64,000 bases of DNA, taken from Ginglymostoma cirratum. Taxonomy: Eukaryota. The stretch covers positions 10,831,735 through 10,895,734 of the forward strand of contig JAHRHZ010000047.1 in assembly GCA_024137785.1 (NCBI GenBank). Direction: 5' to 3'. How positions within the stretch are numbered: the first letter of the stretch is position 1; every line of letters begins with the position of its first letter. Shown here in pieces: positions 40,601 through 63,260 of the stretch. A program made the translations under genes and the position numbers. Below the pieces are notes generated by a model. It made no database searches. It saw only the letters and a list, made by a program, of their open reading frames with translations, and was not told the origin of the DNA.

Positions 40601-42394
40601 AAAACATGAACCATCTAGCATGCCCAAGGGATCTCTGAAGCATTGATTATGATAACATAAAATGCCATTTCTGTAGTGCTCAAGTCAATCACGCATCTGA
40701 ATTTTTAATGGGTCCATTCGTGACAGATGACAATGAAGTTATTTACAATTTGGACATTCTCAAATAATGAGAAATCTGTCACCATTCTTCCCTTTCCATT
40801 CCCAATTTGCTTCAGATTTTCCCAAAGTAGCGACTCTTCATCAGCAGTAAAAGATGAGCCAACTCCAAGCTGGAACCACAGTAACTCAAGAATACACTCA
40901 CAAAAAGGTATCTAGATTTAAACCAACGCAACATATCAGACATTACCTATATGAAAGTGAGTTCCACATATCATCAGATTTCAGATTCAAACTACCATGT
41001 TCAGGTAACGGTACTGGCATCACAATTCAGAGGGACACAAAGACTGCAAAACAGAAATCCGAAGATTCCTATTTCTCTGTTCAGTGATCTTTGCTAGAAA
41101 TAACAAGACATGGATTCTGATTAATGAGATTTAGTTCTGCTGAGAAGCCACTAATGTGTGATCATCATAATGTAAGCCTAGCTTGTGGCTCAAGTCTGGT
41201 CACTGGGCAAATCAATGCCTCTTGAAGCAGGGAGGAAAAAATATCCAAAATTTTATTATGGAGGATCAAGTTCAAGCAAGTTTGAGAAAAAACACAAAGC
41301 AACATAAAACCCCAAATATCAATGCATGCAGCACCATCTTCAACTAATAGATGACCCAGTCGCAGCTTGTAAACTTACATCTTACAAACAGCTTAGTGTC
41401 ATTCGCATCAAACAGAAATTTATGCAAACCAGAAGCAGCAACGTAAAAGGTCATCCAAACACAGAATGGCACACTCAAGGATTTTGTTTTGAAAATACAA
41501 TGCAGGATTCCTCCTCCAGCAATCTGTACCTCAAATCAGACAGAACCCAGGACTCATGCGTTAAGTCTATGCAGGATAAGAAGTCTTTCATTGTTGCCAA
41601 CTTAAAGTTATTATAGCTGGGACCAAGGGGCTATAAACAATTTCCTAAGTCAAATAAGGAAGCGCAAAAATCCTAATGAGAATGATGCTGTAAGTAGGGT
41701 TTCAGTCAACAAATGGAGGAAATGCTTTTGAATTCTTTCATGTCATCACAAATTGGTATGAGACTTCTTCACTGCGGAGACCAATTTTTCTTTTCCCTGA
41801 CATTGTATAGAAACATAAAACTTAAATTGAATTGGATTAGATACTAAAGTACAATAAAATCTGGTTACTTAAAATTAACCCAATTTCAACTGCTATTCCA
41901 GAAGACATGGTCTTACAGAACTTATCCTGCCAACTTTATCAAACAAAACAGACGGCAGTGACTGACATTCTGGAGACCCTCCAGCTTACTACACAATTGC
42001 TACCAGCATATATGCTTTTCTCCAGCACTGTTAGTGCAATTAATCAGCCCAAGGTGCTGAACAGTGGGAAGAAAAAAAGATTCAAATACTAGGAGGTCAC
42101 AAAATTATCAGCTAAAGGGTGATATAAACTGCAAAGGCAGGGCACGAGGCTCGGATGACAACCAAAGCATCAGGTTACAGTTCAATATGGTGCTGAGGAC
42201 CAAAGCAAATGTGAGGTTTGGTGTGAAAGACTGTACACTAAGACTGATATATCAGACCTGAATAAGCTGGTAAAGGCAGACATCATGATTTACTAAATGT
42301 TTGCATTTCAAACTTCTCAAGGAGAAATTTTAGACAGACATGACCATTGCCCTAGATCCATAAGAAAACTTGCATAGTGCAACCTTGCAATTAG

Positions 42395-46630: not shown

Positions 46631-49600
46631 GGTAATGCTTTTCTTTCAAAATCCAAGGATCAAAACTTCTGTGACTAATGAAATGTAGTCTTATACAACC
46701 ATAGGGTATATTGTTACTAAAGAACGAACAACTTTTCCAAGACAAGAGAAAACTGGATTGCCACAGCTGCAATGGCAGCAACAGCTTTTATTGGTTAGCT
46801 CGGAGTCTCCTATTTATTAGTTGCTTGGTATTACAGAACTTGAGCAGTCCTGAAAAAAAAACAAAGCTTTTTTGCCTTGCAGTCATCCAGATAATTCATC
46901 AGAATACTAATAACATTTTTACTAAATGCCAGTGGAATACTAACCAGTTTTCAACTGGACTCTGGTTGGTAAAGCATTGCCATGGGAATGCACCCTTTAA
47001 TGACAACTGACTTAACTGTCAGGCTTTGCTTCAATTTCAAACCAATCAACTTGACTCAGATTTCCTCAGGACAAAACTAGCAAATATTAGTCACCTGTTT
47101 AGTTGAGTTGAAACAGGCACACTGCACATAGGACGAAATGTTTCAACAAAGTGTACTTATTATTTCCTTTATGTTTGCTAGAAGGGGGTGGGGTGAATTG
47201 TTTACCAATGTATTTTCTGTCACTTATGACAGAAACTGCTGTTTGAACTTATAGCAGCTGTACCTAAATAAGGCCATCAAAAGTTTCACACTTCGATGCG
47301 ATCTCGTGGGCTGCTGCTTCAAATTTTGCATTCATTCTTCCAGCGCAGTAGAAGCATGAACTTGCTCTTTGCCACATGCTCTTCTAAAGACCAAGAGGAT
47401 GATTTGCCGAGTCCAAAAATACATGCAATTCAATAACAAAATGAAAGTAAAACTTTGGCTGCGGGTAGTCTGCTCGAAAGGCCAAACCACTTTTGCTCCA
47501 CAAGTGTATTTTTAAAAAAAGGCTGAATTTCGAGACTGTTTAAATGACTAGCATGTGACGATCCTCACTCCACTAGAGTAACAGGACAATGGTAAATAAT
47601 TAGAATAGCCAACCATGGCTATCAACTGTGCAGAAATTAAAGGAAATTGCAAGTATGAGAAAACATTAAATCAATTAATTTTAAATGGGTCAGGATAGTC
47701 AAATGTTACACAACACAGGGTACCATCAATCCCTGCTATTCTCTGAGTCATCATAGGAGTTTTTTAAAAAATTTATCTGATTTTCAGTTCAGGAAAATAC
47801 AGATCAGGTTTCTGTACTTAAGAATTACTATTTATTACAAGTTAAGAGACTCTAGCTACAGATAAACAATTCTGAACTATCTAAAGGAAAGAAATGGGTG
47901 TTACAGGCAGAAGGTCAATTGGGGAAGCAGTTTAGTAGTCTCTTCACAGGATGTGCACAGACGGTTCTTGTGTTGATCCGAATGCTGCCTATCGGTCCGC
48001 CTTCTTTGGATGCTTTCACTGGCTTGCAGGAGGCTCAATGTTCACACATATAAAAGATCTGCGACTCACGAACTGAAAATGACAGATTACAGCATCTGTT
48101 AAAAGGAAGATGAATTAGTTTTCTTCAGGCTTACCTGCAGAGAACAGAGAGGTCCTGACCTGATGTAGATTGTAAGGTTTCTCACTATCTCATTCAGACC
48201 CCTAAGCTGGTCAGTTACACAAGATCCAGTTATATAATTCTTAGTAGGAAGCAGCCTTTGTCATCAGCCACTGGTCACTAGTCCACAAACTATTAACCTA
48301 CTCAATGCTAGCTGAGCTTCCATACACATTTAGCTCCAATTCATTTACAAATTACACTTCAACTACTGCTTGAACGGCAGATTTGTAAACAATGCTGACA
48401 ATGCATGTCAGGGTACTTGCTTTTCAAACTACAGTAATAATTAAACCAGGTTTTTTTAAAAAAGTCTTCTTCCCCATTTCAGTCCACATCAAAAAGTACA
48501 GAAAAATAAAAAATGCCTCCACACAAGAATATGCTGAAAGGATCCATTCCTATAGTCTTTGTTTGAAGAACTGTACTTAAGTAATCAGAGCACAGAACCA
48601 CGTAAATTGTGTAAATTGACTTAAGACTTTTACCTACACTGTTGTATATATTGCCTTTTCAGCCAAAGCCAATTTAACTAACAAGGACAACATTCAGCAT
48701 AAGGTCTAATTGACCAAATAGTTCTTGCTCTACCTGAATGATTCACATCAGTGTGTTAATCAAACCTATATACTTAGCATAGCAGCCCTGCTACCATACA
48801 AGTAATAATCAGGTCTGAACTAATAATTAAGAGAATGCATTAAATCCTGAGATGGCAGTATCAGAACTTAAATTCACTTTAAAGAAAACTTGGATAAGAA
48901 AAACAGTTATTGATAAATTCCAGATGGTTCATTACTGTCCTGAAGGAAAAGAAACCTGCCAATCCTTTCCTGGTCTGACCTGTGACCCCTATACCACCCC
49001 AATATAATTCATCCTGAATTGCCAACTTAAAAACAAAAAGAAACCTCACGGTCCTAGTGAATACTGGACAATGCTTTATAGGTCTCTGATCACCTCCTCT
49101 GCACAAGCAGAGACAGTAAAATAAATGCTGTTTTTTTTTTGCTAAGGATGCCCATGGCTTGACACTAAGTAAATAGATGAGGCAACATAGGCATTACTCC
49201 TTCATCAACAATTTCCCAGTGACCTTCTAAAACAATATGGCAAATGATAATAGCATGGCCATCTCTCGCCAGTACTGTAGCCAAACAAGCCAACCCAGTG
49301 TCCACCAACTAACTTTACCAAGTTTGGTAGTGCACACAAGACTAAATTAGGCTATTTTATGTAACATTTAATTAATTTTGACGCAATCATGGTTTTGGAT
49401 AGTTCACTCAAGAAGATAAGCCTCTTGACAGCATGATGGGAGTTCACCAAAAGGGAGAGGTGAAGAGGTTTAGAGATTATCCTTGAACTTGAGGGTTAGG
49501 CAGCAGCAAACACAGTCACCCATGGTGGAATGACTAATATCAAGAACTTGCAAGATGCCAGAATTTCAGAACCCTGGCCTCAAGCGAGGACTAAAAATCG

Positions 49601-49724
49601 TTAGAGAGGGTGAAACGAATATCAGAATTTGAAATTAAGGATAATGGTTTTCAAGTAGCGGTGATGTTGGAGCTAGGATCAGACTTGGTATGAGTTCTTT
49701 TTACATCAATAAATGGAATGTATG

Positions 49725-62489: not shown

Positions 62490-63260
62490 TCTTGAAATAA
62501 AATAAATTTATTTTCAAAATAAAGAATTATATACAGATATAGAGGTCAAATAATACCAAAACAAAATAAGTATTTTACAGGCAGAATTACTCCCAATTAT
62601 TTTAAAATAATGAATTTTATTTTTAAAAATATAAATCATAATTTAAAGTATTGCTTTGTAGTGGCATGTAGTTAAACTAGTCCATTGAAATCAACTTGAT
62701 AAAAAAGGTATTTTTCTCAATAGGCAGCAGTACAAAAATTATTTTCACAGGTTGCAATGCTTTTGTAAACATCAATGTCAATTCTCTTGATTCACTTGAG
62801 GGATTATTTCTTGTTCTATAGTCGCACAGTTAATGCACCCCAATAACAATATTATTGGGTCAGTTTATCATTTGCCAAGTGGCAAAGCTTTCGATAGTCC
62901 ACTTCCTTTATGTCCAAACAAGTCAAAGACAAAGCGGGTGTCATCTTGGTCATATACTGGTGGTCTCCACATGAGAATGTCCTCAGTTGAAAGGTTTCTT
63001 TTTTAGGAAAGAGAAAATCTCGGTGTTGGTATGATATTGGCATTGCGGAAGAACACTTATTTAAACATTACCTGCAATGTCTAGCTCATTCTGCACTCCA
63101 CAAGGGATAAGTTCTATATTTCTTTGATACTATAAGACAAAGGTAATTTCTATTCTGATTAAACCAAGCATTGCTTTGCCCAAAAGGGTGAAGTATTTAG
63201 TTTAATAATATCTGAACATTTGAACACCTTACCTTGTACAGTAAAGTTTACACATTACAT
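62490..63260 (-). ncRNA. Candidate 3' exons of a CHASERR-like upstream lncRNA
   Basis: Located upstream of CHD2 on the same strand. Minus-strand AATAAA at 62616-62621 and 62507-62512, the latter followed by a GU-rich tract. Plausible 103-nt GT-AG intron at 63130-63232. AAGATG and AATGGA motifs present. Confidence 0.3.

Follow-up and report, generated by a model that had tools for sequence, protein, structure and literature searches.

Exon 2 of CHD2 in Ginglymostoma cirratum is spliced in RNA to two acceptors, with exon starts at 48072 and 48095, which lie in an old dispersed repeat copy within intron 2, and the repeat-derived, truncating exon opened by them is probably a last exon in its own right. 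All positions refer to the window, i.e. the whole stretch of 64,000 nt that was analysed, and motifs are read on its minus strand. In the earlier note the site (48064..48155) had been read as a recursive splice site, an AG|GT at 48135/48134, with a poison RS-exon; this reading was left unsupported, its defining acceptor and donor being without a junction in the RNA sets X21 and X3.

The minus strand of the window carries CHD2, here an elasmobranch gene. Exon 3 (32158..32380, minus) gave its best match with zebra shark CHD2 (96% identity, E 8.5e-24), its top matches being CHD2 of shark, ray and chimaera; zebra shark CHD2 aligns exon after exon along the window, and a CHD1-like C-terminal domain follows on this strand of the contig about 29 kb past the window. 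Exon 2 (56788..57053, minus), which supplies the upstream donor, is identical to zebra shark CHD2 in 86 of 88 residues. Intron 2 runs from 56787 to 32381 and measures 24,407 nt. In X21, 16 polyA reads span the intron 1 joint (57053-57302), as does one X2 contig. At the end of exon 1 (57310-56850 region, minus), an ATG opens a 71-residue in-frame extension before the exon 2 ATG, and this N-terminal extension matches annotated shark and ray CHD2 isoforms.

Every motif claimed for the site was found at its minus-strand coordinate. Acceptor 1 (48129..48151) reads CTCTCTGTTCTCTGCAG|GTAAGC with its junction at 48135/48134, i.e. a pyrimidine tract of 12/13 followed by CAG|GTAAGC, in which acceptor and donor are fused. 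Acceptor 2 (48096..48118) consists of a branch-point-like CTAAT at 48118-48114, its putative branch point, followed by CTTCCTTTTAACAG| at 48096/48095 (exon start 48095), and acceptor 3 (48073..48082) of TCATTTTCAG| at 48073/48072 (exon start 48072). The donor-like motif TTC|GTGAGT (48064..48072; junction 48070/48069) is seen in the sequence 65 nt downstream of the AG|GT. The reading frames predicted from these motifs were likewise reproduced: a 65-nt form reads AGG TAA, an immediate stop after exon 2, a 26-nt form shifts the frame, and a 3-nt form adds one Ser. Such an extra Ser at the exon 2/3 junction was present in 0 of the 28 related CHD2 proteins in which the junction was displayed (35 examined).

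Five of 24 listed runs were compared with the window. RNA use of these motifs was assessed with X21, a set of polyA reads, and X3, a set of contigs guessed to be RNA, in the close-up region 47940-48250; X2 contigs are without a listed piece over 47976-48191, X22 yielded 0 reads, and the junction evidence for the site comes to four raw X21 reads and the X3 contigs, one run each. At 48075 the four X21 reads depart from the genomic sequence and continue with exactly the letters that end exon 2, which gives the junction exon 2 to 48072. The same junction was carried by an X3 contig at a depth of 29.2, and X3 record 14 consists exactly of the last 30 nt of exon 2 and 27 nt from 48072. A further X3 contig joins exon 2 to 48095 (depth 14.4), so that acceptors 2 and 3 are both in use, acceptor 3 most. 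X3 record 11, the shared exon-side sequence, has a depth of 36.4 vs 7.8 for the unspliced intron just upstream.

Of the exon that the earlier note had placed here, splicing from exon 2 and the use of two of the three named acceptors (48095 and 48072) thus stood, while its outer borders did not. No junction or loose end at 48134-48137 occurs among the listed X21 and X3 pieces (X21 depth is 2 there, and contigs drop rare forms), and X3 record 15 crosses the AG|GT unbroken; the predicted junction 56788 to 48134 is accordingly missing. At the donor 48070 no junction, to 32380 or elsewhere, is found among the loose ends listed in X21 or X3, and X3 records 11, 14 and 16 run across 48070/48069 unbroken and without a fork, so transcripts read through the GTGAGT. 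With no junction at either place, none of the 65-, 26- and 3-nt cassettes is seen among the listed X21 and X3 pieces at the level that contigs retain. An early stop in the product had also been claimed, and here the claim was borne out, both RNA-supported forms (48072 and 48095) being truncated.

The 48072 form reads Ser-Ser-stop, its stop codon ending at 48066, and the 48095 form adds 20 new residues before a stop codon ending at 48035. Predicted products comprise 93 (48072 form) or 111 (48095 form) residues from the exon 1 ATG, and 22 or 40 residues, respectively, from the exon 2 ATG. In X21, four exon 2 to 48072 reads vs 16 intron 1 reads correspond to about 25% (exact 95% interval 7-52%). 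This suggests that roughly a quarter of the transcripts in the X21 sample enter the cryptic exon, a share that is probably inflated because polyA selection favours short RNAs.

The body of the cryptic exon (47880..48095, minus) was observed as far as 47940 and would continue to 47880 and beyond. X21 depth falls from 6-8 at 48006-48071 to 2 at 47940-47961 and to 0.69 in 47282-47672. No donor is used within 47940-48095, the region of high-resolution RNA, and no GT donor with at least 6/9 consensus matches occurs between the 48069 motif and 47422. An AATAAA, the candidate poly(A) signal, lies at 47831..47836 (minus), 236 nt from acceptor 3, and is the only one within 1 kb downstream of that acceptor. 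Taken together, the fall in X21 depth, the absent donor and the AATAAA favour a last exon, with a 3' end that we infer from these three features. At its start at 47975, an X2 contig bears 21 non-genomic letters that resemble a template-switch adapter, which we take to be a library feature and not a splice junction.

The alternative that fares best next to a last exon is a longer internal poison cassette with a donor farther downstream, or else part-spliced pre-mRNA, the product being an NMD target; we regard it as possible, though clearly the less probable reading. It draws on the 3' end of the exon, at which neither a poly(A) tail nor a downstream junction was seen in the RNA examined, and on one X2 contig that spans 47975-47236 through the AATAAA, so that read-through or pre-mRNA exists. 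X3 record 11, if collinear, would moreover end near 47880, short of the AATAAA, and this end could mark a fork. There is, however, no GT at 47880, the stretch from the 48069 motif to 47422 offers no good donor, and for an NMD target one would expect less than about a quarter of the intron 1 count in untreated polyA RNA.

The repeat origin of the exon was established by a search of the shark's own genome with 47900-48300, in which 40 of 377 candidates were scored, i.e. the window copy and 39 others with 66-79% identity. The other copies align over 47770-48512, the extent of the shortened window copy, and the alignment stops abruptly at 48512; the family measures about 0.9-1.0 kb in length, its copies share boundaries, and no flank is common to most copies in the approximately 300 nt of flank examined. 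Mean identity is 65% between the window copy and the others and 67% among copies, from which it follows that the family is old. No long reading frame was found (longest 170 codons stop-to-stop, 40 loci), and an Rfam scan of the window gave 0 matches. Several copies begin with TGT and end with TTTAC(A), and 5-nt direct repeats flank 2/39 copies by eye (L009, L038); by its copy ends and flanking direct repeats the family appears LTR-like, no internal region having been found. At 47800-47850, about 20-30 X21 polyA reads show fixed differences and run off into unrelated sequence; these reads stem from a transcript elsewhere in the genome that contains another copy of the same family.

Comparison of the copies indicates that acceptors 1 and 2 and the AATAAA are features of the repeat family: the AG of acceptor 1 is present in 25/37 ungapped copies, that of acceptor 2 in 29/39, and the counterpart of the AATAAA at 47836-47831 in 9/23 aligned copies. 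The AG of acceptor 3, on the other hand, occurs in 3/37 copies, and GTRAG at the proposed donor 48070/48069 in 5/33. Between acceptor 1 and TAAGCC, 36/39 copies hold 9-12 extra nt, and the other three have deletions of their own at this junction. The AG|GT exists because the window copy is without these approximately 11 nt; the exact fused 18-mer occurs once in the genome, in the window, vs 22 times for the spaced form. By this alignment a single small deletion, at a place prone to such losses, produced the 'recursive' AG|GT. An apparent AG|GT in copy L012 (1/36) was rejected as a gap artefact, as L012 has 11 nt in between.

According to the earlier note, the proposal would be refuted if the site lay inside a repeat consensus, and this was found in part, the tract and the AG of the site being repeat-derived. 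On the intron sense strand, YAG|GTRAG was observed twice vs a mean of 0.54 in dinucleotide shuffles, and in combination with a 12/13 pyrimidine tract once, which 1 of 200 shuffles also produced (mean 0.005). The AG|GT therefore beats random sequence, yet with tract and AG both derived from a dispersed repeat, shuffled sequence was not accepted as the relevant null. The other YAG|GTRAG of the intron, TTAG|GTAAGT at 50212-50205 (minus), is without a pyrimidine tract, and none of the listed junctions lies there.

Conservation was assessed in one relative, organism B, one contig of which spans 47424-49714 and shows 127 differences over 2,320 letters (about 5.5% diverged). Between 47940 and 48250 the alignment is gapless with 20 differences; 15 of these are listed, and the remaining 5 were taken to sit near the ends of the region. 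The AG|GT, acceptor 2 and GTGAG are unchanged in organism B, and since the AG|GT is unchanged the deletion predates the split. Acceptor 3 reads AA in organism B, as in most repeat copies, and by this comparison the most used acceptor is probably a recent gain. The 92-nt site holds 3 differences vs 17 in the other 219 nt (Fisher p 0.20), so that the conservation check named in the earlier note, made in one relative at 5.5% divergence, did not rise above background. Within 48082-48151 no listed difference falls in 70 nt (chance of such a gap among 20 differences 0.10), and at acceptor 1 the window copy is closer to the family than 35/39 copies; the unchanged stretch and this closeness may be weak hints of constraint. 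On the alignments used, the region does not appear significantly conserved (p about 0.2), and they give no sign of selection on the exon.

For the repeat exon the following course is proposed. The acceptors of an old repeat copy in CHD2 intron 2 would capture the exon 2 donor, and the early-stop RNA would likely end at the repeat's own AATAAA, with cleavage expected 15-30 nt after 47831, which would make the exon a probable cryptic last exon. Acceptor 3 may have arisen by a one-base gain and would now take most of the flux. Acceptor 1 would be disfavoured because the deletion moved a strong U1 site up to the first base of its exon, and because the downstream CTAAT would serve acceptors 2 and 3. 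As a net effect, part of the CHD2 transcripts would be lost to a non-coding dead end, and the cryptic exon is likely without a selected role; against this last point counts its usage (4 vs 16 reads), which is high for pure noise.

A selected role is the substance of a further alternative, in which the repeat copy was co-opted in this shark lineage as a splice-and-terminate attenuator that lowers CHD2 dose, with turnover of its acceptors. Exon use may be substantial, organism B retains acceptors 1 and 2 without change, and precedents exist in mammals, where, in the available text of PMC6841665 and PMC7798263, CHD2 dose is controlled via CHASERR; for human CHD2, the accessible part of 10.64898/2026.01.19.700316 describes an abundant NMD-inclusion event (PSI 21-49% in human cells). 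The main acceptor is, however, absent in the 5.5%-diverged organism B, conservation is not significant, and the window copy is farther from the family than 37/39 copies at acceptor 2 and than 33/39 at the exon start, so that we consider a co-opted attenuator unlikely. In an extended version, equally doubtful in our view, an ancient shark repeat with acceptor and poly(A) signal would serve as a natural gene trap and would have been retained in CHD2 intron 2 to brake dosage in addition to CHASERR; the deletion would have adjusted its strength by making the strongest acceptor an AG|GT switch between recursive skipping and termination, and the later acceptor gain would have adjusted it again.

Recursive sites consist, in the sections available of PMC5126111 and PMC6224609, of a fused acceptor and donor, to which the upstream exon is joined before it is spliced again, in competition with a downstream donor. 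With its polypyrimidine-YAG|GTAAG and a second donor less than 100 nt downstream, the shark site resembles vertebrate recursive sites and RS-exons; it differs from them in having neither an upstream junction at the AG|GT nor use of the second donor, in being repeat-born, and in lying in a 24-kb intron. Saw-tooth human recursive sites of Sibley et al. are tabulated in the available part of PMC10156609 with introns of 172-875 kb, whereas the lariat-defined human sites of the same source show weak conservation and span introns of 0.2-248 kb; neither intron size nor weak conservation therefore excludes a recursive site by itself, 24 kb being compatible.

A working recursive splice site at 48135/48134 with a poison RS-exon ending at 48070 could further invoke its fit to the Y5+N0-4YAGGT filter (PMC10156609, as far as available), the second donor 65 nt downstream, the rarity of the motif in shuffles, its unchanged state in organism B, and the short life of RS intermediates, which would be rare in polyA RNA and lost from contigs. 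The case against it rests on the missing junctions in these polyA and contig data, 48134 and 48070 being without one in X21 and X3 while the neighbouring acceptors are seen. The motif itself is a repeat acceptor plus a deletion at a place where 3/39 other copies also lost bases, and eight bases would remain unchanged by chance with a probability of 0.64 at organism B divergence. If the donor at 48134 were spliced again to acceptor 2 or acceptor 3, the introns removed would measure 39 and 62 nt, respectively. Introns of this size are too short or borderline for splicing, and recursive re-splicing was ruled out on length as a route to acceptors 2 and 3. Among the readings weighed, a functional recursive site is the least credible and very improbable.

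Cryptic last exons agree better with what was seen. In the available sections of PMC7997972, typical RS-exons are without cleavage signals, unlike cryptic last exons, and the latter usually lie less than 10 kb from the upstream exon, which the 8.7 kb between exon 2 and the shark cryptic exon fits. The SFPQ-repressed cryptic last exons of that source, so far as described there, share with it the long intron, the predicted early end and the short peptide; the shark exon differs in that it was seen in ordinary public RNA runs, and its cleavage site is a predicted one.

In the accessible part of PMC11846448, alternative last exons often take their acceptors and ends from repeats, e.g. antisense Alu/SINE. 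The shark exon lies within a repeat copy whose acceptors 2 and 3 are joined to exon 2, as is the case for TE-derived exons, and as in the TE exonisation of that source, in the part available, the AG and its polypyrimidine tract come from an intronic repeat. Here also, a further acceptor appears to have been activated by a point change, and the product is non-coding or truncating. The difference from Alu exonisation is that the element is an old LTR-like repeat, of which one copy gives both acceptors and the candidate poly(A) signal. With the human CHD2 NMD-inclusion event the exon has in common unproductive splicing of the same dosage-sensitive gene; homology between the two is not expected, because the shark exon derives from a repeat of its own genome. 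No published description of the shark CHD2 repeat exon was found among the papers listed on CHD2 or on shark alternative splicing, and the available text of PMC6889285 contains nothing on it.

The site is a modest, well-resolved case of repeat exonisation, in which one copy uses an acceptor that it inherited, probably gained a new one that is taking over, and holds a deletion-made AG|GT that was not seen used. It also serves as a warning that RS-like motifs from genome scans need a repeat check. If the leak from CHD2 were regulated or conserved, premature termination within intron 2 would add to the points of control, and this would matter more because CHD2 dose is tightly held in mammals.

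Three other places in and near the gene were recorded. Upstream of CHD2 on the same strand, an AAGATG at 62947 is followed by AATAAA at 62621 and 62512; in the available part of PMC7798263, AAGATG and AATAAA are conserved in CHASERR last exons, which are spaced less than 2 kb from CHD2. As a candidate CHASERR-like last exon, 63040-62500 is a weak lead, as it lies about 4.5 kb from the apparent CHD2 start and thus beyond that spacing. In the 5' part of intron 2 (56787-54195 region, minus), X21 depth is 2.7-8.0 in bins over 54320-55883 and 0.47 in 53929-54319, and AATAAA occurs at 54625 and 54195 (minus); possibly a second premature-polyadenylation isoform ends here. A single-copy 97-nt exon candidate lies in intron 2 at 41043-40947 (minus), with a good acceptor and a GTAATG donor. 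Placed after exon 2 it brings an in-frame stop, and translation from an ATG within it, at 41020, would continue in the frame of exon 3. Over 24 residues the peptide from this ATG agrees at 20 with the start of whale shark CHD2 isoform X3; when the first 40 residues of the whale shark isoform served as a protein query, none of 23 candidates matched, which is uninformative. By its sequence features 41043-40947 would be more promising than the repeat exon as a conserved poison exon or alternative-start exon.
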